Source: Legionellales bacterium (GTDB lineage: Bacteria > Pseudomonadota > Gammaproteobacteria > JAHCLG01). Taken from it: a stretch of DNA of 64,000 bases. Position numbers and translations under genes: made by a program. Every line of letters begins with the position of its first letter. Position 1 is the stretch's first letter. The notes beneath the pieces were generated by a model. It was not told the origin of the DNA. It saw only the letters and a list, made by a program, of their open reading frames with translations, and searched no databases. Positions 37,959 to 64,000 of this stretch are shown in pieces. The stretch covers positions 3,866 through 67,865 of the forward strand of contig JAHCLG010000013.1 in the NCBI GenBank assembly GCA_026125385.1, given 5' to 3'.

Positions 37959-38018
37959 TTACGCTACTTGAGCTGTACCCGCTATACTTATATCAATTTC
38001 TTTTATTTCGAAACTCAT
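37959..38018 (-). CDS. 19-codon ORF MSFEIKEIDISIAGTAQVA, candidate precursor/substrate peptide
   Basis: GAGGTG Shine-Dalgarno exactly 6 nt upstream of the ATG. Stops 24 nt before the E1-like gene on the same strand. Confidence 0.4.
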   Translation of the reverse strand: MSFEIKEIDISIAGTAQVA

Positions 38019-38233
38019 TTCTCACACCTCTTCATTTATTCAATAGATGACATATTAGCATAAGACTTGCAACTGAACAATTGATGTATATTGAATGGCT
38101 CTCTGGCGTTTCCCTAACAAATAAAAGCTTTTATGATTGGTTAAAGTATGGTAATTTACTGCATAGTATGTTTTTTACTATAAAAAACAATTCGTGAATT
38201 TCCTTCGCAATTATAAATGGTAGATACCACTCG

Positions 38234-39676
38234 ATGCTTAAGTGTTTTAAATTTATTTTATGTGTTTTGGCAACCCTAAGTTATTTATGTGGTAGCGCCG
38301 CTGGGTTAACCATCCCTCTTGGAAATAATAAAGTTTCACTTGATCCATCCTATGCTTTGGATGTATTGAGTTTATTTGTTGCGAGACAAATTAATTGTCA
38401 ACTGATACGCAACCAGAATGGTAATTACAAATTAGAAGCGGCAGAGTCTCTTAAATTTATATCTCCTACAGAATTACAAATAGTATTAAATAAAAATGCA
38501 AAATTTACTGATGGTTCTCCCGTAACAACATATGACGTCTTAGCAAGTTTTAATTATATAAAAAAATATCGAGCATTTTATCGAAATTTTTTTTCATGGA
38601 TTAATGATATTAAAATCATAGATCAAACAAAGTTATTAATCCGTTTGAAAAAACCTGCCCCGCAACTTTTAAATATGCTTGCATCACCAATTTATTCAAT
38701 ATATAAAAAATCTTTTTTAGCCAGAGCAGAAAAAAATAAATCTCTTTGGCATAACCCAATTGGTTGTGGTGGGTATAAAATACTGAAGTTTACAAAAAAG
38801 GAAATCCAGCTTGAACCAATACATAAGGGATTGCCAATTAAGTTTGTTTTTAATAATGAAAATCAAATATCGTCTGCTGATATTGATAAATATGATTTAA
38901 TCACATTGAAAGTTAGCCAAAACTTAAAGAAGTTGTCTAATTTCCAGGATATAAAAATATTTGATCCGTCACAGCTTTATGTCGGGTTAAATGTTTCTAA
39001 ACCTATTTGGAGTAACAAAAGCACACGATGCTCTTTTCTTTCAAAAATTGATGATAATGATTTAAAAAAATTATATGGTGACTCTGGAATTATAGCTAAT
39101 GATTTCCTACCTCAAGGTACTCTGGGGTATAATAAGAACTTCAATTTTGCAGCAATAATTCATGCTAACACTGAAGATTATTCGTCCTTAAAAATCACAA
39201 AGGATATATGCGTCGCATATATAGGGATTAGTATACCTAAAGATCTTATAAAAGGTTATCTAGATACTATAGAAAAAATTTCACCTCGCATTAAGCTTTT
39301 ATCAATTTCAAATCCTAGTAAATTTGCTCCAATTTTCTTAAAGAAAAAATGCGATATAATTATTTTTAGCTTAAAATCTAGTTATTATGATGGTTATGAA
39401 TATTTAGATGTATTCGCAGATAAAGATGAAAATTTCACTGGAATTCATGACGAAGATCTTATTTCTAAAATAAAAAAGAGCCAATACGTTACCGATTTAA
39501 ATAAGCGCGCAATGCAATATCAAAAAATTATTAATAATATTGCAAATAAATGCTATATAAGACCATTGATCACGGTCCCAATGAGAGATATTTATGTGAA
39601 AAATATATTTAATGCTCCTGGTATTTCTATAGGTCCATATGCCGAGTATTACCTTGGAAATATTGCTTTAAAATAG
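38234..39676 (+). CDS. family-5 (peptide/nickel type) periplasmic solute-binding protein, orphan
   Basis: Signal peptide plus an SBP_bac_5-like N-terminus (KFTDGSPVTTYDVLASFNYIKK). No adjacent ABC permease or ATPase. Confidence 0.6.
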   Translation: MLKCFKFILCVLATLSYLCGSAAGLTIPLGNNKVSLDPSYALDVLSLFVARQINCQLIRNQNGNYKLEAAESLKFISPTELQIVLNKNAKFTDGSPVTTYDVLASFNYIKKYRAFYRNFFSWINDIKIIDQTKLLIRLKKPAPQLLNMLASPIYSIYKKSFLARAEKNKSLWHNPIGCGGYKILKFTKKEIQLEPIHKGLPIKFVFNNENQISSADIDKYDLITLKVSQNLKKLSNFQDIKIFDPSQLYVGLNVSKPIWSNKSTRCSFLSKIDDNDLKKLYGDSGIIANDFLPQGTLGYNKNFNFAAIIHANTEDYSSLKITKDICVAYIGISIPKDLIKGYLDTIEKISPRIKLLSISNPSKFAPIFLKKKCDIIIFSLKSSYYDGYEYLDVFADKDENFTGIHDEDLISKIKKSQYVTDLNKRAMQYQKIINNIANKCYIRPLITVPMRDIYVKNIFNAPGISIGPYAEYYLGNIALK

Positions 39677-39683
39677 TTATTAA

Positions 39684-39945
39684 TACCCATATTGAGCTAC
39701 CCTCTGATTAAAAAATCGAATTTATTCTGAACAAATTAGTAAAATTTTGCTTACATTAATGTTGTTTAAACCCTTTCTCACTGGATCCATTAACTTTCAC
39801 TCTACTAACTGCTTCTATGAGTGATCAATTTGCACGATCTTCATTTCTACGAGCAATATAACTTTCTTAGAAAGACTCTAAGTTAATGTTTTTTTTATAT
39901 TTAATAAAATCAATTTTTTATGAAGTGGGGTAGCTCAATGTGGGT
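39684..39945. repeat. MITE-like segment bounded by 19-bp imperfect inverted repeats (TACCCATATTGAGCTACCC ... GGGTAGCTCAATGTGGGTT)
   Basis: Inverted repeats at 39684-39702 and 39927-39945 match 17 of 19. They flank about 225 bp in the convergent gap between the SBP and MATE genes. Confidence 0.35.
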
Positions 39946-40027
39946 TAATATATGATACGCGTAAATTTTGTTTTTAATGGCTTTTCATGTATGCTTAAAT
40001 CGGGAAATTTTAATCTCGGTTCAATAT

Positions 40028-41380
40028 TCAAACTAAGGATTTCCCATATCGTTTTTCAAGTTTCAAAATATCCTTGTAACACAAAATAGCAAATACTGTT
40101 GAGAATAAGGTCATTATTAATCCAAATGTTTTAGGCGTTGCATGAATAAATAAGATAAACACTTCTGTGATACCAATTAAAATTAATATTTCAGTTAGAA
40201 AATAATTTTTTGTAACCATATGGCTATTTTTTGTGGCACGTAAAGGCACAGTGAATCCGTTGCCTATTTGTGCAATAAACGAACTTCCCAAAAAAATAAT
40301 TACATATTGCATTTGATCAGGATTGGGGATATAACCATACACTAATTTAAATAAAGGTGACACGTAGAGTAAAGAGATCGTTAAGAACAACGAAGTTGGA
40401 ATGATGCCTGTATAAAAATATATTGGCCACCATGTGACATTTTCGTTACATTCTTGAGAAAAAGTTTGTGACGCTTCTCTAATTGCTATTTGCATTGCTG
40501 CAACAAATGGCATGCAAATAATAAATGCTAATTGTAATGTTAGTTGATAGGTAACTAAAAAATTTGAAGAACTTATAAAATAGACAAATTGCAAAGCAAG
40601 AATAAAAGGTGTAATCCCTCTTATTAAATAAACACCTAGTTCGCCCCACCATACTTTCATAATCATAGGCAAAGGATATTTATCCCAGCCCATTCTATTT
40701 TTTGATAGAAAATAAAGTCCAGAAGAAATAGCTAGGATATATAATATAGTAGTAGAGGATATTAATATTATCATTGGATAATAAATAGAATTTACTGTGG
40801 TACTTCCGTGAAAATAGTAACTAACAATCTGACTATCTATAATAATATTTAAAATAACTAGAACAAAAGCTATTTTCATACTAAAATTTTGTTTTTTAGA
40901 AGCAACTAATATACCATCGACGGTGCAATAAAGTGTTTGAAGAATCATATTTATGAGGCCAATTCGTAGATATGCTATTGCTAAGGGAATATAAGATGTT
41001 TGAACTTTACAAAACGTTACAAATTGATATGAAAATACCCCTGCGGTAATGGCTATGCATAGCGCAATTGTTCCTGATAAAAGTAAATGATTAATGAGTA
41101 CTGAGCCTTCCTTACCTTTACATTCTTCACGGTTAAAGAATACTAGACAACTTATATAAGTTGCTAATCCAATGAATTGTCCAAAAGTAATAAATACATA
41201 CTGTAAATTATGTATATATAGTGCTGATTGACCTAAAACGGCAATATATCGATTATCAATTATAGGGAAAAATCTCTGAAATATTTGTGAAAAAACGATG
41301 GGTAATAGAAGAATAAAATGATGTTGCAAATTCTCTGGTTTTTGAAAGCATTTTTTTATAATAGCTGTAAATAATTCCAT
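40028..41380 (-). CDS. MATE/MOP-family efflux transporter
   Basis: 450 aa, about 12 TM segments. MATE-like N-terminal pattern PIVFSQIFQRFFPIIDNRYIAVLGQSALY. Confidence 0.6.
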   Translation of the reverse strand: MELFTAIIKKCFQKPENLQHHFILLLPIVFSQIFQRFFPIIDNRYIAVLGQSALYIHNLQYVFITFGQFIGLATYISCLVFFNREECKGKEGSVLINHLLLSGTIALCIAITAGVFSYQFVTFCKVQTSYIPLAIAYLRIGLINMILQTLYCTVDGILVASKKQNFSMKIAFVLVILNIIIDSQIVSYYFHGSTTVNSIYYPMIILISSTTILYILAISSGLYFLSKNRMGWDKYPLPMIMKVWWGELGVYLIRGITPFILALQFVYFISSSNFLVTYQLTLQLAFIICMPFVAAMQIAIREASQTFSQECNENVTWWPIYFYTGIIPTSLFLTISLLYVSPLFKLVYGYIPNPDQMQYVIIFLGSSFIAQIGNGFTVPLRATKNSHMVTKNYFLTEILILIGITEVFILFIHATPKTFGLIMTLFSTVFAILCYKDILKLEKRYGKSLV

Positions 41381-41407
41381 AGATTAAACCTTCTTTCCAT
41401 TAATATC

Positions 41408-41466
41408 TACTTCTTCGTGTCTTTAACTCTGCGCCTCGCCTAGAATCCAATTGCTTTGAGTAAATA
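41408..41466. repeat. copy of a dispersed 60-70 bp repeat (other copies at 8641-8709 and 48380-48449)
   Basis: The sequence CTTCGTGTCTTTAACTCTGCGCCTCGCCTAGAATCCAATTGCTTTGAGTA aligns at about 85% with the other copies. Confidence 0.5.
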
Positions 41467-41686
41467 CACGACCTTAATTAAATTTGACACTTATTCATAA
41501 CGTTTATATTTTAAGTTGTGTAGCGAATTAAGCCTACATAAAGGCTATAACTGATACATTAGCTTGTAAATTTAACTCATCAAAATGGTTGAAATATTAA
41601 ACATATATTTGGAGCACATAATAACATAAAATAACGCTAAATAATACTATTTAATGTACTCCTGCATGCTTCTCTTGAAAAGATTG

Positions 41687-42594
41687 TTAGTTTAATTTTT
41701 TTCTACATTCAAACAAAATCATCGGTATGAATAGCTCTGGTGTTTCACTATCCTTACTGATAATAATTTTATTGACACTAAGATTAGTCTTATTAAGTAA
41801 ACTCAACCATTCTTCTTTAGAACGACTTAAGCTATTCCAGTTAACCATCAAATTTAAATCATTTAATACGGCTCTTAAATACCCTAGATGTGACTTTTGC
41901 GGCAACATAAAATCGACAATGAGCAATTTAGCTTCATTAGACAAACTTTTTGCGCATTCATTCAGAATTTTAATGGCCATGTCATCATTCCAATTCAATA
42001 ATGTGCGGCATAAGACATACAGATCACCACTTTGGGGAATACCTTGAAAAAAATCACCACCGATTATGGTTACGCGCGTCAGACAATTATAGGCATTTAG
42101 AACTTTTTCAGCGTTTTGTACCACGGTTGGTAAGTCGAATAAGATACCAGTTTGATGAGGATTGTTTTTCAATACATTGCCCAAAAAATGCCCTTGAGCA
42201 CCAGCAACATCTACAATTCGATGGTAACTATCAAAATTATTTTGCCAAATTTTTTGTTCCAGGCAGGTTCATGAGTTTTAAGGGTGAATTCAAATTCTTC
42301 AAATGCTTCATAAGCTCTGATTAAATGAGGTGACCTCGCACGAGCTAATTGTGGGGTTAACTCTGTGCAATAAACCCTATCCTGAGAGATAAGTACGATT
42401 TCATGTGCTTCTAACACTCTTAAAAAACGTTTAAGGGCGTCGTGATTAAATTGTAATGTTGTCGCTAGTTCTAGTGTGCTAATACCGGTACTAGGAATCA
42501 ACTTATCTAGCTTGTACTCACCAGCTAGTAAAATTACTTTAGCGGTCACATAGCTAAGCGCCAAGGTATAAATTTTATGAGGATTCTTTTGCAT
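41687..42594 (-). pseudogene. class-I SAM-dependent O-methyltransferase (COMT-like family 2) split by a frameshift in a T6/A6 homopolymer
   Basis: The N-terminal dimerisation fragment (42211-42594) and the C-terminal catalytic fragment (41687-42184) are in different frames. Reading the second frame upstream restores YHRIVDVAGAQGHFLGNVLKN, the SAM-binding motif. The shift maps to the homopolymer run at 42250-42255. Confidence 0.7.
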
Positions 42595-42840: not shown

Positions 42841-44862
42841 TTGATTGAACCGAGTTTGGTTATTTCCAATACCTTAGAAATTCGAAGGCTATTGGCATTA
42901 GTTAGTAGTGATGAGCACACTTTTTCAGTAATTGATGATAATAATATTGTGTATTTGCCCGATTATAAATTTCAAGATTTAGTCGATGAAATTATAAAAT
43001 CGGATAAAATAAAACATGGCTGTGAAATCAATGATTTTTTCACAATAGCATTTCATGGTCGAACATATCAAGTATTATGCTCAATAATTAGCAAGCCTGG
43101 AATCATATCCTTTAAAGGAAGCCCATATTTAATCAGCTTTAATTTGGAAAATCCTTTAAAAATTTCAATTAATACACTTCTCTATTTTTTAATATCTACG
43201 ATATTGATATTTTTAATTACCTATTTTTGGTTTGGGATTAATTTAAAGAGAAAGTTATTAAATTATCTGTATTCACTTGAGGTTCAAATCAAAAATAAAA
43301 ATTTCAACTTCATAGAGAATGTTTCTGCGGTTAAAGATGATAAAATACCTCTTGAAATCGAGAATATTCGCGCGGCTTTTCAACAGCTATTAAGCGATCT
43401 GGGTAATGAAACGAATAAACGAATTGCCAGTGAAAAAAAAGCCGCCATTAGCACACTAGCAGCTCAGGTTGCTCACGATATTCGTTCACCTGTCGCTGCA
43501 ATTCAAATGCTAAGCAAAGAAAACTGCTTATTGCCAGAAAATACTCGTAAATCGTTAAAAGATGCGGCAGCTCGAATACAGGATATTGCCAATAATTTAT
43601 TGTCTCAATATAAAACTGGTGCTAAAGATACGGCAGAGCAGAATAGTTTATTTTTAATTTCAGATGCAATTAGTGCTGTTGTTTCTGAAAAAAAATTACA
43701 ATATTCAGAACGCAAACTAAACTTGCATATTCAAGCACAAGGTGATGCCAATCTCGCTTTTATATATTCAGACCCCATTAACTTTAAACGAATGCTTTCC
43801 AATTTACTCAATAATTCGATTGAGGCCATAGGTGAAGAGGGTTCTATTTCCATTGTGCTTCACTCATCACAAGATTATGTTGATGTGCGGATCACGGATG
43901 ATGGTTGTGGTATGTCTTCCGTAAAAATAGCTAATATTCTTAATGGCAATATTACTTCAACTAAAAATCAAGGTTCCGGTTTAGGCTTGCAACATGCGCG
44001 AGACTTTATGAAAAACGCCGCGGCAAAATTTGATATTCAATCAACAGAACGTATCGGTACCACTATTCACTTACAATTTAAACGAAGTGCTTCTCCTCCA
44101 TGGTTAGCTGATAAAATTTCTATTAAAAAGCAGAGTACTATTATCATTCTTGATGACGATGTTTCCATTCATGGCGCATGGGATCGATATTTTGCCGATC
44201 GAATTAATGTTGAGTATGGCATTAATATTCTGCATTTTCACCAAGCAGCGGAGTGTATTCTTACAATAAAAAATAATTTCAACACGCTGAAGGATGTAAT
44301 TATATTAACGGATTTTGAATTACTTAACCAAAATATGAATGGTTTAGATGTAGTTGAACATAGCGGTGTAAATAATACAATATTAGTCACCAGTTATTAT
44401 GATGACCGAAAAATATTAGCAAGGGCAGTATCACTGAATGCTAAAGTATTACCTAAAATGTTAGCCAGTGAGATTGAAATTGAAATTAATGAACAGCCTC
44501 AAAATTTTAAAATTCCTGAGGCTCCAAAAAATGAAGCTATCGATATAGTTTTGCTGGAAGATAATCAAGAGTTATCTGATATTTTCGCATTTATATGTGA
44601 ACGCAATGGAAAGCAGGTAAAAATCTATCATAACCCTTACTCATTATTTACGGATTTAAATACTTTCGACCCTCTTGCTACCAAAATTTGTCTTGATCTT
44701 AATCTCGGCTTCGATCCTGTCAATGGAATTGATATTGCCATTCTTCTGCATAATAAGGGATTTAAGCAAATTTATCTTGCTAGTGGCAGCCAGATCGATC
44801 CAAATTCTGTTCCCGAATATTTAATGGTATTAAAAAATAAAATCGATCTGACGCGTCTTTAG
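42841..44862 (+). CDS. hybrid sensor histidine kinase with two C-terminal receiver-like domains
   Basis: One clear TM segment, a HisKA H-box (VAHDIRSPVAAI), HATPase G-boxes (DDGCGM, GSGLGL), then two CheY-like modules with divergent acidic pockets. Confidence 0.7.
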   Translation: MIEPSLVISNTLEIRRLLALVSSDEHTFSVIDDNNIVYLPDYKFQDLVDEIIKSDKIKHGCEINDFFTIAFHGRTYQVLCSIISKPGIISFKGSPYLISFNLENPLKISINTLLYFLISTILIFLITYFWFGINLKRKLLNYLYSLEVQIKNKNFNFIENVSAVKDDKIPLEIENIRAAFQQLLSDLGNETNKRIASEKKAAISTLAAQVAHDIRSPVAAIQMLSKENCLLPENTRKSLKDAAARIQDIANNLLSQYKTGAKDTAEQNSLFLISDAISAVVSEKKLQYSERKLNLHIQAQGDANLAFIYSDPINFKRMLSNLLNNSIEAIGEEGSISIVLHSSQDYVDVRITDDGCGMSSVKIANILNGNITSTKNQGSGLGLQHARDFMKNAAAKFDIQSTERIGTTIHLQFKRSASPPWLADKISIKKQSTIIILDDDVSIHGAWDRYFADRINVEYGINILHFHQAAECILTIKNNFNTLKDVIILTDFELLNQNMNGLDVVEHSGVNNTILVTSYYDDRKILARAVSLNAKVLPKMLASEIEIEINEQPQNFKIPEAPKNEAIDIVLLEDNQELSDIFAFICERNGKQVKIYHNPYSLFTDLNTFDPLATKICLDLNLGFDPVNGIDIAILLHNKGFKQIYLASGSQIDPNSVPEYLMVLKNKIDLTRL

Positions 44863-52275: not shown

Positions 52276-52881
52276 TTAATGATTATGGAAGCGTTTTAGC
52301 GTTCTATTGCATTGGGTGATGATGATTTTTTCTACTCGTTGTAAAGCAGGATAACTACCATGAACTTTTTCAAACTCTTCTTTTACCCTACTGAAATTTT
52401 CTTTTAAAGTGATGGCAAGTTCATTAACTAACTTAATTAAATAATGTGATTTGATATCGCAAGCATGGGCTAATTGAGTCCAATCTTCAACCGTTATGGT
52501 GTTAGGATTAAATTTATCTCCAACTGCAAATGCTAATTTACTGTCGATGCGAGCAATTGCTCTGGTGCAAACTAAATCATAAAATGGAGCAAGTTGTATT
52601 TGTTGATTCGATTTATAAAGCAAAGCATTGTCTATTATTTTCAGATCGCGAATAATGTGGGTTCTTGCACTGCCCTCTGGCAATAAATTGGCAAAAAAAT
52701 TGTGAGCTTTTTTGCTGGTAGGTAAATATTTTTCGGAAGTAAGCGGTAATTGTTGGGAAATAGCAAACCCATGGTCTAACCAAGTATCATGGTATTGAAA
52801 TCCTATTTCACCCTGATTATCGGGTGTTAATTCTCCTACTAGTTTTTCTTCATACCAAACAATTAGTCGATCATTATTCAT
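52276..52881 (-). pseudogene. hipA: HipA-family toxin remnant with in-frame loss of the kinase core
   Basis: A HipA N-domain (MNNDRLIVWYEEKLVGELT...FFANLLPEGS) is joined directly to a HipA C-terminal tail (LAPFYDLVCTRA...). The kinase catalytic region of about 240 aa is absent. Only 201 aa. Confidence 0.55.
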
Positions 52882-57492: not shown

Positions 57493-58416
57493 ATGCCCCT
57501 TCATCCGCAATTAAATGCATTGTTAAAAAAATTTGCCGAACTTCCCGTCACTGATTTTAATCAATTTACCGCAAGGCAGTTGCGCGAATTAGCACAGATG
57601 AATCATTTTATGTGGGGCGCGCCTCCCGCAATTGCTCGAGTTCGCGATATCACCATTGAATTACCGACGCATGAAATTCCTCTGCGTATTTATCAGCACG
57701 CTACCCAAAAACGCCCAACATTAATTTATTTTCATGGCGGTGGCCATGTCTTAGGAAATTTAGCCACCCACGATACCATTTGTCGTCATTTGTGTTTAGA
57801 AGCCAATGTTCACGTGATAGCGGTGGATTATCGGTTAGCGCCAGAAAATCCGTATCCTGCTTGTCACGAAGATGCTTATTCTGCATTGCGTTGGATTATT
57901 GAAAATGGGCATTCATTTAATATGGATGTTAATTCGATTATTCTTGCTGGCGATAGTGCGGGCGGCAATATTGCCGCCTTATTAGCATTGCGTGCTCGCG
58001 ATGAAAATATCGAAAAAATAAAATTACAAGTATTGTTGTATCCAGAATTAAATTTAACCTGTCAAACACCGTCACATCAACACTATGCGCAAGGATTTTA
58101 TTTAACCAAAGAAAAAATTGAGTGGTTATTTAAACAATATTTACCACCCCATGTTAAACGCGACGATCCTTTAGTATCACCCTATTTCGCCGATTTACAT
58201 CAAGTAGCTCCTGCGATTATTATCGCCGCAGAATACGATCCATTGTGTGATGAAGCCAAAGATTACGCCGAAAAATTAACAGCATCACAAGTGAACGTGC
58301 TCTATACATTAGAAACTGGCATGATCCACGGATTTTATGGCATGTTGGCAATATGTGAGCAAGGCTTAACCTCGTTAAAAAAAGCAGGTCGCCAGATCCA
58401 ACAGTATTTGCCCTAA
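57493..58416 (+). CDS. alpha/beta-hydrolase esterase/lipase (HSL family)
   Basis: HGGGH oxyanion motif and GDSAGG nucleophile elbow. Confidence 0.75.
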   Translation: MPLHPQLNALLKKFAELPVTDFNQFTARQLRELAQMNHFMWGAPPAIARVRDITIELPTHEIPLRIYQHATQKRPTLIYFHGGGHVLGNLATHDTICRHLCLEANVHVIAVDYRLAPENPYPACHEDAYSALRWIIENGHSFNMDVNSIILAGDSAGGNIAALLALRARDENIEKIKLQVLLYPELNLTCQTPSHQHYAQGFYLTKEKIEWLFKQYLPPHVKRDDPLVSPYFADLHQVAPAIIIAAEYDPLCDEAKDYAEKLTASQVNVLYTLETGMIHGFYGMLAICEQGLTSLKKAGRQIQQYLP

Positions 58417-58904
58417 TGAGTATTTTGTTTTTGCAAATAATTCGCGCTGCCATCGATCCAATCTTGGCGAGCGGGAGCAAAAAAATCCACATCAATGGTA
58501 TCGGCAATGGCGACAAAGCGGTGCGGCACATTCGGTGGGATCACTAAGACATCACCCGCCTTCACCGTGAATTTTTTTCCTTGCGAATAAACAATGACTT
58601 CACCTGAAACTATCCAAGTAATTTGTTCGTTAGGATGATAGTGAGTTGGAATAATGGAGCCTTTTTTTAAATACCATTTAACGATTTCCGACCGACTACC
58701 ATAAATATATTGGCGAGCCGTTAAGGGGGTTAATTGTTCTTTCGGCATGCTTTCAAAATGATAGAGAGAGGGGTCAGCGTAATAATGTTGACTAATGTGG
58801 GGGATAATCCCACGATCTTCATCGGGATTAGTTTGGTGATTTGTTGCAAACGCTGTATTGCCGAGTAAAAAGCTAAGAATACCTATCATAAAATATTTTA
58901 TCAT
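58413..58904 (-). CDS. cupin-domain secreted protein
   Basis: Signal peptide. Cupin-like motifs HYHPNE...GDVLVIPPNVPH. Confidence 0.55.
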   Translation of the reverse strand: MIKYFMIGILSFLLGNTAFATNHQTNPDEDRGIIPHISQHYYADPSLYHFESMPKEQLTPLTARQYIYGSRSEIVKWYLKKGSIIPTHYHPNEQITWIVSGEVIVYSQGKKFTVKAGDVLVIPPNVPHRFVAIADTIDVDFFAPARQDWIDGSANYLQKQNTH

Positions 58905-59515: not shown

Positions 59516-60961
59516 TTAAGTGTTAAATTCTCTCTTTGAGAGAAAAAAAGTATCTATCGTGATAGAACTATTATTTGAATTCGATGGTGATGCTGCGAAC
59601 ATGGCTGACGGATTTCTGCCAGGTGAGGTAGGAGGACTTATTAAATTATTTATCTCTTGTAGAATCAAATTGCGTTCTTGCTCGGAAGTAATTTTTTTAG
59701 TTAAATCATGTATTCTTGAAATACATTTATATTTAAAATAGCTGTCACTTTCATTTTTATCATAACGCGTAATCAGTCGTCTAATATTTTGTATAATTAA
59801 TGAGTCAATTATTTTCTGACTATCAGCTTTAATATTCGCTATAAATCCCTCTTTATTTTGGTTTTCTTTATAAGAATTAAAAATAGTTGAAATTTCAGTT
59901 TGTTTATCTGGGAATATTGTTTTTAAACTTTTTAAAAAAGTATCATTTATTGAATAATCTTTGTTCACAGCAAATAGAATTAAATGAATATTGTCATTCT
60001 TGCAGAGTAGATCGTATATGTGATCCTTGCAGAGTAGATCGTATATGTGATCCTGTATGGTTTTATAGCTTTCTTGGTCGACAAATGAAAAGACAGTTTC
60101 GAAAAAACTTCGGAGTCGACCTCTGGAATATTTAAAATCATAACTAGTGAATAATTCATAAAGAATTTGCTCTGGGATTGCCATGATATAATTAAACGCA
60201 TCTTCTGATGAGTTTTTATAGTTTTTTTCTAAATGAGATTCTAGCTGAGTCGTAACAGGTGATGCGTCGTAATAGTTGGTAAGTTCTGCCCAATTATTTT
60301 CTGTAGAAGATGCAATTTTTTTATCCATTTCTTCTTGGATTGTCGCGCTGGATATTACGTTAGTATTTGCTGCTATATTTTCAGGAGCCTGTGTGTTACT
60401 GGTCGAAGTTGATAGGTCTTGCAGTTGCGTTTCTGATTGTTTGTTATCGGTTATTGGGTAATTCTGACCACAAGCAGGTTTCTCTAAGACTATGTCTGCA
60501 ACACCTCGATCGTTAGAACCATTTTGGTTATTACTTCCTTGATCTGCTTGTTTTCTGTTGCTGGATGATACGGGATTATTTGGTGTTATAGCGTTGTTGT
60601 TTGATGTTGTGATGGTCGCTGAAGTTGCGTTTGAGGTGGAGTTTAGCACTTGTTTTTGAGTAGTATTCTCTGAAACTGTTGTTAATAGAGCTGTATCTGA
60701 GTTATTCTCGACTAGTTCGTATTCGTGTAAATCATCAGAATCTGCATTTTCTGTGGTATTATCATCACTCGTTGTCAGTGCTAGCGTTGTACCATTAATC
60801 CCGCTCTCTGCGCTGTTCACAGTAGTAGTCGTGTTAGTAGTTGTTGTAGAATTATCACTTAAAGCAGTCATTTGTTGTTCTGTTGCAGAGTCACTCTGAT
60901 TGCTCGCTGTTTGAGTATTACCAAGTAAATTAACAACTCCTTTATAAAGGCCACTAAGCAT
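59516..60961 (-). CDS. Ser/Thr/Asn-rich low-complexity protein with internal tandem duplication, effector-like
   Basis: 481 aa. The N-terminal roughly 200 aa are STN-rich and disordered, followed by a C-terminal folded region. The protein contains DHIYDLLCK repeated twice. Confidence 0.55.
   Translation of the reverse strand: MLSGLYKGVVNLLGNTQTASNQSDSATEQQMTALSDNSTTTTNTTTTVNSAESGINGTTLALTTSDDNTTENADSDDLHEYELVENNSDTALLTTVSENTTQKQVLNSTSNATSATITTSNNNAITPNNPVSSSNRKQADQGSNNQNGSNDRGVADIVLEKPACGQNYPITDNKQSETQLQDLSTSTSNTQAPENIAANTNVISSATIQEEMDKKIASSTENNWAELTNYYDASPVTTQLESHLEKNYKNSSEDAFNYIMAIPEQILYELFTSYDFKYSRGRLRSFFETVFSFVDQESYKTIQDHIYDLLCKDHIYDLLCKNDNIHLILFAVNKDYSINDTFLKSLKTIFPDKQTEISTIFNSYKENQNKEGFIANIKADSQKIIDSLIIQNIRRLITRYDKNESDSYFKYKCISRIHDLTKKITSEQERNLILQEINNLISPPTSPGRNPSAMFAASPSNSNNSSITIDTFFLSKREFNT
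59999..60052. repeat. perfect 2 x 27-bp in-frame tandem repeat (CTTGCAGAGTAGATCGTATATGTGATC)
   Basis: Read directly from the sequence. Encodes DHIYDLLCK twice on the minus strand. Confidence 0.85.
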
Positions 60962-61094: not shown

Positions 61095-61127
61095 ATTATA
61101 CATAAATTTTATTAAGATAATATTACG
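61095..61127 (-). promoter_or_regulatory. PmrA-box-like tandem repeat (cgTAATATT-at-cTTAATAAa) 7 nt upstream of a TATAAT -10
   Basis: The minus-strand read cgTAATATTatcTTAATAAAatttatgTATAAT resembles the Legionella/Coxiella PmrA consensus cTTAATatT-N2-cTTAATatT, which sits in place of a -35 element. Confidence 0.4.
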
Positions 61128-61196: not shown

Positions 61197-61949
61197 TTAA
61201 ATAATCCCACTTTCCATGCTGCGCAACTTCAAATCGTCGAATAAGGCGAGATAGAGTCGGTAGTACCAGGGTAAGAAAGCAGTCATGGCGAAGGCTTTGG
61301 CGAAATTATGCGATAAATATAGCGGGGCTTGTGTGGCGGAGTGGGTAATCACCAAGGTTTCGCGAAAAGCGCTATCGATGAGTAGCGTTAATATAAGCGA
61401 GATAATGCCGCCGAGGATTAACAATAAAAAAGTTCGCCACCAATAGTGTTTTACTATGGCGATGCTAGAGGTTAAGGCTTTCCAGGGGTGATAATGCTCT
61501 AATAAAATTAATGCGGGAAATTGACTGAGTAAAATTAATAAAATAATGCCGGGAATAATTAAAATTAAAAGTCCTGATAAACCCGCTATCATGAAAATAA
61601 TAAACCCGCAGAGAAAAAATGGAAATTTTTTAAATGCTAGGCGGAAGAGTTCTGTGGATTGTGTTTGTAGGTGATGCTGTTGATGATAAATACGCAAAAT
61701 TAACCAACAGTGAAGAAATAATAAAATTAGCACATAAGGAAAAAAATACGGTAAAAAAGCGCGCACGCCAGTTTCAATTTGAGCAAAATGTTCAGAGGCG
61801 ATGTTGGGAAAAATTAGCGCGGGTGCTACGGTGATAATGCCAATCAATAAACACAGCGCAAAATTGTTAAGCCATGTTTGTCCAAAGCGAGAAATACTGG
61901 AATGTAAAATTTCGCTGGGGCTATGAGTCGTCAAATTGTGATTGGACAT
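61197..61949 (-). CDS. multi-pass membrane protein of unknown function
   Basis: 250 aa with five or six hydrophobic helices. Confidence 0.45.
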   Translation of the reverse strand: MSNHNLTTHSPSEILHSSISRFGQTWLNNFALCLLIGIITVAPALIFPNIASEHFAQIETGVRAFLPYFFPYVLILLFLHCWLILRIYHQQHHLQTQSTELFRLAFKKFPFFLCGFIIFMIAGLSGLLILIIPGIILLILLSQFPALILLEHYHPWKALTSSIAIVKHYWWRTFLLLILGGIISLILTLLIDSAFRETLVITHSATQAPLYLSHNFAKAFAMTAFLPWYYRLYLALFDDLKLRSMESGII

Positions 61950-62049
61950 GGTGGACTTCCTTGTGCTGCCATTTGCCGAGTATGTTCACTTTACAAGCGC
62001 GGATGATAGTATAATATACTTCCAACAGTGAAATGAAAAGACCAGGATC

Positions 62050-63375
62050 ATGGGCATTCAGCAACGTATTGCAGAGTTTATTGATAGAGTTCAGGTATCG
62101 ATTATTCAGAGTGTGGAATATTCTGAAGAATATATGGTCATGATAGGTGCAGTAGGGTTTATCGGATTTCCCTTGTTTTATATTTTGTGGAACTATATTT
62201 ATCCCCAAGCATTTGAAAATTTGCAATTACGTTTAATTGGCAGTTTTCTTTGTATGATCTTAATGTTAAAAGACTATTGGCCACCGGCCTGGAAAAAGTT
62301 TTTTCCATTGTATTGGTATGTCACAGCGCTTTATTGCCTGCCTTTTTTCTTTTTATTTTTAGTATTAAAAAATAAATGGACGGTCATTCCAGTGATGGAA
62401 ATGTTGTGTGGCTTATTTTTATTAGTATTATTAGTAGACTGGCTAAGCTTAATTATTTTATGTTTTCTTGGTTCCGCGCTGGCGCTGGTTGTTTATATTA
62501 TCAGCACGCCTAATATTTATTTTGAAAGTATTTATTTGCAATATATTTCTGTATATTTATTTGCAGTGATCGCTGGAACTATTTTTAATTATAAAACCGG
62601 CGTATTAAAACGAGAAAAATTAGCAGTATTATCGATTATTAGCAGCAGTATCGCCCATGAATTACGCACACCGTTGTTAGGCATTAAAAGTGGATCGGTC
62701 GGGATTAAACGTTATTTACCTATTTTATTTGAAGCGTATAACTTAGCACGCGATCACGGGTTGCCCGTCACTAAAATTCGCTCAGCTCACTATAATACCT
62801 TATTGCCGGCCTTAGAGCGTATAGAAAATGAGGCTAATAATGCTAATACGATTATCGACATGCAGTTAATGAATGTGGGTAAGCAAACCATCGACTCAAG
62901 CATGTTTGAGATTTGTTCGATGAATGGCTGCGTTGAAGAAGCATTAATGCGCTATCCGTTTTCTTCCGCGGAAGAATATCGTTTGATCGACTGGAGACCC
63001 AGCGTTGAAGACCTTTATTTTAATGGCGCCAAATTATTAATGGTGCATGTGTTATTTAATTTAATTAAAAATGCATTGCATTTTATTGCTAAAGCGCGTA
63101 AGGGAAAAATAAAAATTTGGCTAGTCATGGAACCTACCCAAGGACATTTGTATTTTCGTGATACTGGAATAGGCATTTCCAGCAATAATTTACCCCGTAT
63201 TTTTGAACGCTTTTATTCAACCACACTCTCCGGCACAGGGATCGGTTTATCGTTTTGTCGTTTAGTCTTAGAAAGTTTTGGTGGGCGAATCACCTGTCGT
63301 TCTCTAGAGGGTGAATTCACTGAATTTTGTTTAACCTTGCCACGCATTGAACATCCTTATTCAGAACTCAACTGA
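62050..63375 (+). CDS. LqsS/CqsS-family six-TM sensor histidine kinase
   Basis: About 190 aa of six TM helices with no periplasmic domain. This is followed directly by the H-box SIAHELRTPL with the His at about residue 203 (LqsS is about H200, LqsT about H204), then a HATPase domain (GIGLSF). Confidence 0.55.
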   Translation: MGIQQRIAEFIDRVQVSIIQSVEYSEEYMVMIGAVGFIGFPLFYILWNYIYPQAFENLQLRLIGSFLCMILMLKDYWPPAWKKFFPLYWYVTALYCLPFFFLFLVLKNKWTVIPVMEMLCGLFLLVLLVDWLSLIILCFLGSALALVVYIISTPNIYFESIYLQYISVYLFAVIAGTIFNYKTGVLKREKLAVLSIISSSIAHELRTPLLGIKSGSVGIKRYLPILFEAYNLARDHGLPVTKIRSAHYNTLLPALERIENEANNANTIIDMQLMNVGKQTIDSSMFEICSMNGCVEEALMRYPFSSAEEYRLIDWRPSVEDLYFNGAKLLMVHVLFNLIKNALHFIAKARKGKIKIWLVMEPTQGHLYFRDTGIGISSNNLPRIFERFYSTTLSGTGIGLSFCRLVLESFGGRITCRSLEGEFTEFCLTLPRIEHPYSELN

Positions 63376-63433
63376 CTTTGCTTCAGTAGGATTTTACGTT
63401 ATCCTATCCACTTTGAGTATGGAGCGCTAAGGG

Positions 63434-64000
63434 ATGCAAAAATACGGAATTCCTGCTTGTTATTATCCAACCACTGTCATTTTTGTGGATGATAGCCAGG
63501 ATTTTTTAATGAATTTTAGTTTGCAGCTAGACCCCGGTCTTGCTTATCAGTTATATACGGCTCCCGACTCCGCTTTAGACACTATTAATTCCCAACATCG
63601 TGAATTGCTCGATCAGAAATGTTTTTCTCATAACTCCGAAGTAACAGGAAATCCTTCAACGACTCATACCATTAAAGTCGATATCAGCTCTATTCATCGT
63701 GAAGTTTACGACCCCCATCGCTTTAATGAAATTTCGGTCGTCGTCGTCGACTTTGCCATGCCTGATATTAACGGTTTAGAGTTTTGTAAAAAACTGATGG
63801 ATAAGCCGGTCAAAAAAATCTTATTAACGGGTCAAGCCGATGCGCAAACGGCAATCGATGCATTCAATGCAGGCATTATTGATCATTTTATTTTAAAAAG
63901 TGATCCGCACGTCATCGAAAAAGTGAATAGTGCCATTTGTGAATTGCAGCAACGCTATTTCCAAGAAAAATCCGATTTCATGGTCAAAGCTTTAGCCATT
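63434..64000 (+). CDS. LqsR-like atypical response regulator (partial, runs off window)
   Basis: RBS TAAGGGA. DD pair at residues 19-20 and the receiver Asp in VVVVDFAMPDINGLEF at about residue 106, with an inserted segment, as in LqsR (D108). Confidence 0.5.
   Translation, partial: MQKYGIPACYYPTTVIFVDDSQDFLMNFSLQLDPGLAYQLYTAPDSALDTINSQHRELLDQKCFSHNSEVTGNPSTTHTIKVDISSIHREVYDPHRFNEISVVVVDFAMPDINGLEFCKKLMDKPVKKILLTGQADAQTAIDAFNAGIIDHFILKSDPHVIEKVNSAICELQQRYFQEKSDFMVKALAI

Follow-up and report, generated by a model that had tools for sequence, protein, structure and literature searches.

A chromosomal lqsS-lqsR gene pair lies at the end of a 64,000-nt stretch of DNA (from here: the window) from an uncultured Legionellales bacterium. 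As judged from its sequence, this pair very probably represents the receptor half of an lqs/cqs gene cluster, a widespread type of cluster for α-hydroxyketone (AHK) quorum sensing. Such a cluster is known from Legionella pneumophila as the Lqs system, which comprises the sensor kinase LqsS, the response regulator LqsR, the synthase LqsA and the signal LAI-1. The first gene of the pair encodes a sensor histidine kinase that aligned to L. pneumophila LqsS from end to end, including the sensor domain (47% identity over 427 residues, E = 3e-113), and the second encodes a response regulator that aligned to L. pneumophila LqsR (P0263) from residue 1 (52% identity over 189 residues, E = 2e-73). Hence, the assignment to an LqsS/LqsR-type pair of the AHK family, which a preliminary description of the window had made from the bare sequence, was borne out by both proteins. 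The coordinates of all features are compiled in Table 1.

Table 1. Features of the lqsS-lqsR locus and its upstream flank; positions refer to the window.
Feature	Position	Strand	Basis
lqsS-type sensor histidine kinase, non-hybrid, 441 aa	62050..63375	+	47% identity to LqsS; homologues with JGI name CqsS; Pfam HATPase_c
Six-helix membrane sensor domain, kinase residues 29-180	62134..62589	+	Hydropathy; LqsS alignment
His203 codon, predicted autophosphorylation site	62656..62658	+	Aligned to LqsS H200
HATPase_c catalytic domain, kinase residues 330-432	63037..63345	+	Pfam match, E = 4.8e-21
Kinase-regulator spacer, 58 bp	63376..63433	+	Without terminator-like hairpin
lqsR-type response regulator, 5' part, 189 of ~340 codons	63434..64000, open at window end	+	PDB 6sy9, L. 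pneumophila LqsR, L004
Asp106 codon, predicted phospho-acceptor, in VVVVDFAMPD	63749..63751	+	Aligned to LqsR D108
Candidate sigma-70-type promoter TTTACA-16-TAATAT	61990..62017	+	Consensus match only, in the 100-bp gap 5' of the kinase
YciC/UPF0259-like membrane protein, 250 aa, divergent	61197..61949	-	Weak matches to Pfam UPF0259 and NCBIfam YciC

The sensor domain of the kinase consists of six hydrophobic segments (residues 29-49, 57-74, 85-106, 110-129, 131-152 and 160-180). The loops between them are at most 10 residues long and therefore leave no room for a periplasmic domain, just as the preliminary description had stated for six tightly packed transmembrane helices. Its expectation of a conserved histidine at about residue 203 was also correct: H203 is located within the H-box SIAHELRTP and aligned to LqsS H200, the residue whose phosphorylation was described for L. 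pneumophila (PMC5289986). The corresponding phospho-accepting histidines of the family are H200 in LqsS, H204 in LqsT and H194 in CqsS. The catalytic core is complete, with the N box NLIKNA, the G1 box DTGIG, the F box FERF and the G2 box GTGIGL. The HATPase_c domain is followed by 9 more residues, and the protein gave no Pfam match to Response_reg; hence, it carries no fused receiver. Pfam and NCBIfam assigned only the generic HATPase_c and Response_reg families to kinase and regulator, with the catalytic part of LuxN as the top NCBIfam match. Homologues of the kinase at 45-48% identity, and one partial match at 65%, bear the JGI name CqsS. The L. pneumophila protein used as reference possesses S111, S114, I166, F168, A172, T175 and L176 at the positions given in the literature, which identifies it as LqsS.

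The regulator gene starts with an ATG at position 63434, 58 bp after the stop codon of the kinase gene. Its receiver contains the acidic pair D19/D20 together with T132 and K155. The Pfam Response_reg profile covers only residues 83-156 (profile positions 26-100), because an insertion of about 40 residues separates strand β1 from the remainder of the receiver. D106 corresponds to LqsR D108 in the alignments both to L. pneumophila LqsR and to the structure PDB 6sy9 (E = 2.6e-62, alignment starting at residue 1); the earlier reading of a phospho-accepting aspartate displaced to about residue 106 by an insertion, as in LqsR, thus held. The 6sy9 sequence equals that of L. pneumophila LqsR across the aligned stretch with a 20-residue tag offset (D128 - 20 = D108), and the LqsR structure paper is cited in PMC10653808, which together identify 6sy9 as LqsR. 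The C-terminal output domain of the regulator falls past the end of the window. The regulator at the closest related locus (L004), which is 80% identical to the one studied here, has a length of 340 aa and is 48% identical to LqsR over 337 residues. A protein search with the truncated regulator, based on shared exact words, yielded 22 matches among which Legionella LqsR was absent; full-length L. brunensis LqsR, used as a second query, led to the L. pneumophila cluster.

Kinase and regulator genes are probably co-transcribed as one operon, since the 58-bp gap between them contains no terminator; a terminator scan found no terminator-like sites between positions 61100 and 64000. A candidate promoter was found upstream of the kinase gene (Table 1), in a region where 14 matches to the sigma-70 consensus were observed compared to 9.9 expected, which gives this promoter weak support. 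The gene for the YciC/UPF0259-like protein is situated directly 5' of the kinase gene also at the related loci L001/L005, L004 and L086; it is a conserved neighbour in the closest relatives. Searches of the whole window against Rfam at gathering thresholds gave no RNA family. Identical copies of the kinase and of three neighbouring proteins, of a 54-mer from the window end (in genome contigs) and of a peptide pattern from the regulator (in metagenome contigs) were looked for and gave no match. With the L. pneumophila proteins as tblastn queries, only the lqsS-lqsR pair was matched, and no second lqs-type kinase, hdeD or lqsA was detected elsewhere in the 64 kb. The window encodes another histidine kinase (42841-44862), which is unrelated to the lqs-type kinase.

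The arrangement of the two genes is the one that prevails in the family. Among 83 loci tallied, 76 had an lqsR gene directly 3' of the kinase gene on the same strand. A CqsA/LqsA-type synthase gene was present at 62 of these 76 loci, in 51 cases convergent after lqsR, in nine co-directional after lqsR and in two upstream of lqsS. The preliminary description had considered the gene order to differ from that in L. pneumophila, and this view had to be given up. The L. pneumophila locus, with strands in brackets, reads hemC(-) lqsS(+) hdeD(-) lqsR(+) lqsA(-). There, too, lqsS lies upstream of and co-directional with lqsR, so that the published designation lqsA-lqsR-hdeD-lqsS describes the same map from the other strand, and only hdeD is missing in the window. 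Of the 18 Legionella species other than L. pneumophila in which the cluster is complete, 12 likewise lack hdeD (PMC8023197). Kinase, LqsR-type regulator and convergent synthase, in this succession, are the canonical arrangement across Proteobacteria, L. pneumophila included.

Synteny extends from the window to its closest relatives, which share the order DsbA-UvrD-...-UPF0259-lqsS-lqsR. Identities to the kinase and the regulator of the window were ~70% and 80% for L004, 64% and 75% for L005/L001, 60% and 59% for L086, and 62% and 56% for L003. In a neighbour-joining tree computed without support values, the kinase was placed in a clade of uncultured Legionellales that adjoins the Legionella LqsS clade. 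We also considered an LqsT-like orphan kinase located beside a regulator by chance; this was rejected, as the two genes are adjacent as a rule in this family and the tree placed the kinase next to cluster-encoded LqsS proteins.

Compared to the L. pneumophila system, the pair shares the non-hybrid kinase with six-helix sensor, the insertion in the receiver of the regulator and the position of lqsS upstream of and co-directional with lqsR. It differs by the lack of hdeD, which separates the two genes in L. pneumophila, and by its neighbourhood: in Legionella, hemC and a cytochrome c gene flank the cluster, whereas the genes here follow the DsbA-UvrD-...-YciC-like series. Moreover, lqsA is part of the L. 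pneumophila cluster, while no synthase gene was seen within the window. Comparable, too, are the lqsS-lqsR-lqsA clusters of other Proteobacteria, such as Nitrococcus mobilis, Salinisphaera, Paludibacterium and Sulfuritalea (PMC3376566, PMC10653808), in which the kinase gene is directly followed by the gene of an LqsR-type regulator on the same strand and whose kinases are 42-50% identical to the one studied here. In the tallied clusters the synthase gene directly follows lqsR (convergent in 51, co-directional in nine), whereas the equivalent site of the present locus is outside the window. On the basis of the literature (PMC3376566) and of the JGI names of homologues, the CAI-1 receptor CqsS of the Vibrio cholerae CqsA/CqsS system is a member of the same sensor family. 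In CqsS a receiver (D618) is fused to the kinase, and this hybrid protein acts via LuxU and LuxO and without LqsR, in contrast to the kinase in the window, which lacks a receiver and has LqsR as its partner. The term CqsS-type in the preliminary description was therefore imprecise (PMC3376566), since the architecture is LqsS-type and not CqsS-type; its designation as an LqsS/LqsR-type pair stands. PhcX of Ralstonia solanacearum is a member of the same LqsR regulator family (PMC10653808). It has lost its lqsS and lqsA partners and is located beside the phc genes, while the regulator in the window has kept its kinase.

The sequence comparisons establish the identity of the genes, the conserved phosphorylation residues, the domain architecture and the conserved arrangement. 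For the class of ligand, the output and the direction in which the pair is regulated, we rely on homology to L. pneumophila, where the biochemistry of LqsS and LqsR was characterized (PMC5289986, PMC8023197) and where AHK binding was demonstrated to modulate the autophosphorylation of LqsS and LqsT (PMC5289986). By analogy, the six-helix domain of the kinase would bind a lipophilic autoinducer of the AHK type inside the membrane. With the ligand absent, the kinase would autophosphorylate on His203 and pass the phosphate to Asp106 of the regulator. The phosphorylated regulator may then dimerise and act via its C-terminal domain outside the window, which is expected to be the LqsR-specific output domain of about 150 residues, a five-stranded antiparallel sheet of degenerate GGDEF-like type. 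Ligand binding would inhibit autophosphorylation, such that the phosphorylation state of LqsR would report the concentration of the signal.

Where such a signal might originate depends on the PLP-dependent autoinducer synthase CqsA/LqsA. In agreement with the preliminary description, no synthase gene was found in the 64-kb window (tblastn E > 1). One explanation, to which we assign an even chance, is that lqsS and lqsR were kept while lqsA was lost, so that the pair would detect the AHKs of other bacteria. Consistent with this, no synthase gene was found after lqsR at three of the four nearest related loci (L005/L001, L086 and L003), which have other genes there, yet their kinase and regulator reading frames are of full length. 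A similar pattern is known from 20 Legionella species (PMC8023197), and the 64 kb upstream are free of a synthase gene. This last observation carries no information on the downstream side of lqsR, the usual place of the synthase gene. A further point against the loss of lqsA is that the nearest relative has retained its synthase.

At that locus, L004, a gene for a 452-aa CqsA homologue is located on the opposite strand, convergent with lqsR and 68 bp past it, and its product matched structures of CqsA from V. cholerae (E = 2e-94). This observation supports a complete lqs cluster in the organism studied here, with a convergent lqsA/cqsA gene right after lqsR, predicted at ~64.5-65.9 kb; the preliminary description, too, had suggested a synthase gene just past position 64000, which is plausible. 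We regard such a cluster as a real possibility that nevertheless falls short of being probable. It is in line with the synthase found at 62 of the 76 tallied lqsS-lqsR loci and with the synthase genes at the further Legionellales loci L088, L039, L083, L075, L084 and L085. Against it stand the other genes past lqsR at L005/L001, L086 and L003, as well as the report by Herran et al. of receptors without lqsA in 20 of 58 Legionella species (PMC8023197). If the cluster is complete, the organism would be both producer and sensor of its own AHK signal.

A separate question is which ligand the kinase recognizes. We transferred the specificity positions to the kinase via the LqsS alignment from the residues named in PMC3376566, and obtained P114 and E117 in helix 4 and Y169, F171, A175, I178 and F179 in helix 6. 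P114 is encoded by CCA, and E117 by GAA at positions 62398-62400. In CqsS, W104 and S107 set the preference for an amino or hydroxyl group, and tail length depends on C170 or F175 (PMC3376566). The first of the two helix-4 positions is normally W or S in the family but P114 in the kinase of the window, and the second is normally S but E117 here. Thus, the conserved helix-4 serine that contacts the head group (CqsS S107, LqsS S114) is replaced by Glu. Serine was found at this position in 74 of the 84 kinases from genome loci and in 103 of the 121 database homologues, and Glu occurred only in the kinase of the window. Since Ala, Thr, Val and Gly were also seen there in other homologues, the helix-4 serine is a specificity determinant and not strictly family-defining. 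L. pneumophila LqsS differs accordingly at both helix-4 positions (S111/S114) and at the tail-length positions, with T175/L176 instead of I178/F179.

With P114 and E117 at the head-group positions, the ligand may differ from a classical AHK. This would make the protein a kinase of the LqsS family retuned to a chemically different ligand, possibly one with an amino, enamino or otherwise cationic head group or, given the bulky I178/F179, with a shorter tail. We consider this unlikely, even with E117 being unique among 84 kinases from genome loci and 121 database homologues and with the equivalent CqsS positions governing head-group and tail-length preference (PMC3376566). The deviation is present in one sequence only and may stem from an error in sequencing or assembly or from neutral drift, neighbouring lineages carry Ala at position 117, a single mutation from Glu, and the remaining sensor is well conserved, with W47, Q53, W77, D130 and F171 present. 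The more specific version, in which E117, P114 and I178/F179 would adapt the kinase to a signal distinct from both LAI-1 and CAI-1, such as a shorter-chain AHK or an amino- or enamino-ketone, and the synthase was perhaps lost, appears distinctly improbable; if the synthase was lost, the pair would eavesdrop on other species. That the genes encode instead an unrelated six-helix histidine kinase and a generic CheY-like regulator, superficially similar to Lqs, is practically negligible, as the generic Pfam and NCBIfam matches and the LuxN-like catalytic part on which it could be based are outweighed by the full-length LqsS and the LqsR/6sy9 alignments spanning sensor and insertion, and by a three-gene context kept in dozens of genomes.

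As the receptor half of an lqs/cqs cluster, the pair in the window adds to a well-described and widespread gene cluster and is not a new system. For annotation, the published name lqsA-lqsR-hdeD-lqsS should not be taken to imply a different gene order. The unique Glu at the specificity position of the sensor is the sole item with some experimental appeal. The locus provides one more instance of lqsS-lqsR, from uncultured Legionellales that do not belong to the genus Legionella. With its kinase in a clade adjoining the Legionella LqsS clade, it agrees with the proposal of Herran et al. 2021 that the cluster is old in this order, was mostly inherited vertically and lost its synthase repeatedly.

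The final 2 kb of the window are occupied by two genes in the same direction, a histidine kinase followed by a regulator, which constitute a genuine LqsS-LqsR pair in the standard arrangement, of a kind already known and widely distributed, and of which this member is new. Six hydrophobic segments (residues 29-49, 57-74, 85-106, 110-129, 131-152 and 160-180) fill the N-terminal 180 residues of the kinase, and since no connecting loop exceeds 10 residues, there is no room for a periplasmic domain. The phospho-histidine is residue 203 within the H-box SIAHELRTP. The N (NLIKNA), G1 (DTGIG), F (FERF) and G2 (GTGIGL) boxes, together with a Pfam HATPase_c match at residues 330-432 (E = 4.8e-21), make up a complete catalytic core, and because the protein ends 9 residues past this domain, it is a non-hybrid kinase. 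In the 58 bp spacer that separates the two genes no terminator-like hairpin was found. The receiver of the regulator possesses the acidic pair D19/D20, the phospho-acceptor D106 (VVVVDFAMPD), T132 and K155; its Pfam match is limited to residues 83-156 (profile positions 26-100), and about 40 additional residues are located between strand beta1 and the remaining receiver. The preliminary description had correctly reported a six-helix kinase lacking a periplasmic domain, with the histidine at about residue 203, and a phospho-aspartate displaced by an insertion to about residue 106, and its coordinates for the features of both genes were accurate.

Features of the window discussed in the text
Feature	Position	Strand	Remarks
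Histidine kinase, lqsS type	62050-63375	+	441 aa
Regulator, lqsR type	ATG 63434->64000	+	189 codons visible, open at window end
Helix-4 head-group positions of the kinase	62389-62400	+	codons 114-117
Tail-length positions of the kinase	62581-62586	+	codons 178-179
Esterase	57493-58416		in insert
Cupin protein	58413-58904		in insert
Low-complexity ORF	59516-60961	-	481 aa, Ser/Thr/Asn-rich, in insert
Second histidine kinase	42841-44862	+	673 aa
O-methyltransferase, two adjacent ORFs	41687-42184, 42211-42594	-	one Methyltransf_2, the other dimerisation domain
HipA-like ORF	52276-52881	-	201 aa

A structure search with the regulator returned 6sy9_A (361 aa) as by far the best match (E = 2.6e-62), aligned from the first native residue. 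Owing to a 20-residue tag on this chain, D128 in the structure corresponds to D108 of native L. pneumophila LqsR, where the published phospho-site lies (PMC3376566). A cluster look-up yielded L. pneumophila LqsR itself (P0263), to which the regulator is 52% identical over 189 residues with D106 opposite D108. Via P0263 the L. pneumophila locus (L085) was reached, whose 429 aa kinase has S111, S114, I166, F168, A172, T175 and L176 all at the literature positions for LqsS. With this protein the window kinase shares 47% identity over 427 residues (E = 3e-113), with the entire membrane domain aligned and H203 opposite H200. These alignments, which the preliminary description had proposed as a check, support its assignment of the pair to the LqsS/LqsR type. 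Among database homologues of the kinase, at 42-70% identity, are 'sensor histidine kinases' of Legionella and proteins named CqsS by JGI. Generic libraries recognise only the catalytic and receiver domains, therefore the pair appears anonymous in routine annotation.

For the gene arrangement, species-representative genomes were scanned with an alignment of kinase homologues, the best 80 loci were retained with 10-kb flanks, and kinase, LqsR and synthase homologues were mapped in each. Synthase seeds were checked against V. cholerae CqsA structures (the ORF of L004, the closest relative, matched 3hqt with E = 2e-94). The tally of 83 loci, including three duplicate copies of one contig, gave kinase(+) LqsR(+) synthase(-) in 51, kinase(+) LqsR(+) synthase(+) in nine and synthase(+) kinase(+) LqsR(+) in two; a synthase was not found beside kinase(+) LqsR(+) in 14, several of them at contig ends, and the kinase stood alone in seven. 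In L. pneumophila the gene order is hemC(-) lqsS(+) hdeD(-) lqsR(+) lqsA(-) cytochrome c. From the tally and this map it follows that S followed by R, as in the window, is canonical both in order and in orientation. The divergence from L. pneumophila proposed in the preliminary description thus did not hold: the published name lqsA-lqsR-hdeD-lqsS is the identical map viewed from the opposite end, and the sole difference is the missing hdeD. L. quateirensis has the L. pneumophila order plus one ORF between lqsS and hdeD, and hdeD is missing in L. brunensis, L. maceachernii and others. Of 18 Legionella species other than L. pneumophila whose cluster is complete, 12 have been reported to lack it (PMC8023197). 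In L. pneumophila (L085, 5779-10358) lqsS and lqsR are co-directional and lqsR and lqsA convergent; a 2012 review describes lqsS and lqsR transcription as convergent (PMC3376566), which appears inaccurate against this sequence. A glycosyltransferase-41 gene and a BrkB-like gene border a solitary kinase relative (L087, Logan SRR12417981, 6001-7308; 53% identity to the window kinase), which has neither LqsR nor a synthase in its vicinity; L. pneumophila LqsT is arranged similarly.

As the preliminary description had noted, no CqsA/LqsA homologue is present within the 64-kb window (tblastn E > 1). The family norm places the synthase directly 3' of lqsR, here at approximately 64.5-65.9 kb and past the window end. 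In L004 it follows lqsR convergently after 68 bp. In three other closely related loci no synthase follows lqsR: L005/L001 has HPP, a fatty-acid desaturase and ribosomal proteins L33 and L28 instead, L086 a coiled-coil protein and L003 RadC. Among farther Legionellales loci, a synthase is present in L088, L039, L075, L083, L084 and L085 and absent from L041, L051 and L078. The pattern agrees with the recurrent lqsA losses reported in Legionella (20 of 58 species; PMC8023197). As the relatives disagree, we give an lqsA gene immediately beyond 64000 somewhat less than an even chance.

The nearest loci belong to two MAGs that bear the label 'uncultured Legionellales bacterium', L004 (kinase ~70%, regulator 80% identity) and L005, the same contig as L001 (64% and 75%). 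In a neighbour-joining tree without support values, the window kinase falls into one clade together with L004, L005 and L003, and this clade lies next to that of the LqsS proteins of the genus Legionella. The window (GC ~38%) shares the synteny DsbA - UvrD - ... - YciC/UPF0259-like(-) - kinase - regulator with L001/L005, L004 and L086. The stretch from UvrD to the YciC-like gene contains, in the window, an extra insert of three genes; this insert is absent in L001 and L086, and L004 has only one 140-aa ORF there. The low-complexity ORF of this insert contains an exact 9-residue tandem duplication (DHIYDLLCK twice), matched no Pfam or NCBIfam family and could encode a secreted or effector-like protein specific to this lineage. 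No exact match to the window was found in GTDB species-representative genomes, JGI metagenome contigs or a 153-billion-gene index; with the closest loci just ~70-80% identical at the protein level, this Legionellales lineage lies outside those three collections.

Elsewhere in the window, the second histidine kinase (HisKA and HATPase_c at residues 204-415, plus ~260 more residues) gave no tblastn match to LqsS and is, judged by its sequence, unrelated to LqsS or LqsT. The lowest-GC stretch (GC 0.29-0.30, within 38000-42000) comprises an SBP_bac_5 protein, a MatE transporter and the split O-methyltransferase, probably a frameshifted or interrupted gene. The HipA-like ORF, with a Couple_hipA N-terminal domain and just a partial HipA_C, is probably a truncated toxin remnant.

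In L. pneumophila, LqsS is autophosphorylated on H200 and LqsT on H204, this autophosphorylation is inhibited by LAI-1, and LqsR accepts the phosphate on D108 and dimerises (PMC5289986). According to the published model, target genes are repressed through the phosphorylation of LqsR at low signal (PMC8023197); the output domain of LqsR has a degenerate GGDEF-like fold, for which cyclase activity was not detected (PMC10653808). The window pair retains every residue required for LqsS-LqsR phosphotransfer. The L. pneumophila scheme is expected here; by homology, phosphate would most likely pass from H203 of the kinase to D106 of the regulator.

The helix-4 positions that determine the preference for the ligand's head group, W104/S107 in CqsS and S111/S114 in LqsS (PMC3376566), are P114/E117 in the window kinase. 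At the second of them, 74 of 84 genome-locus kinases and 103 of 121 database homologues have Ser, and the window kinase alone has Glu; neighbouring lineages have Ala, from which Glu is one mutation away. At the tail-length positions the window kinase has I178/F179, LqsS T175/L176. This single-sequence observation could reflect a shifted ligand specificity, and the substitution at the specificity site is possibly worth a note.
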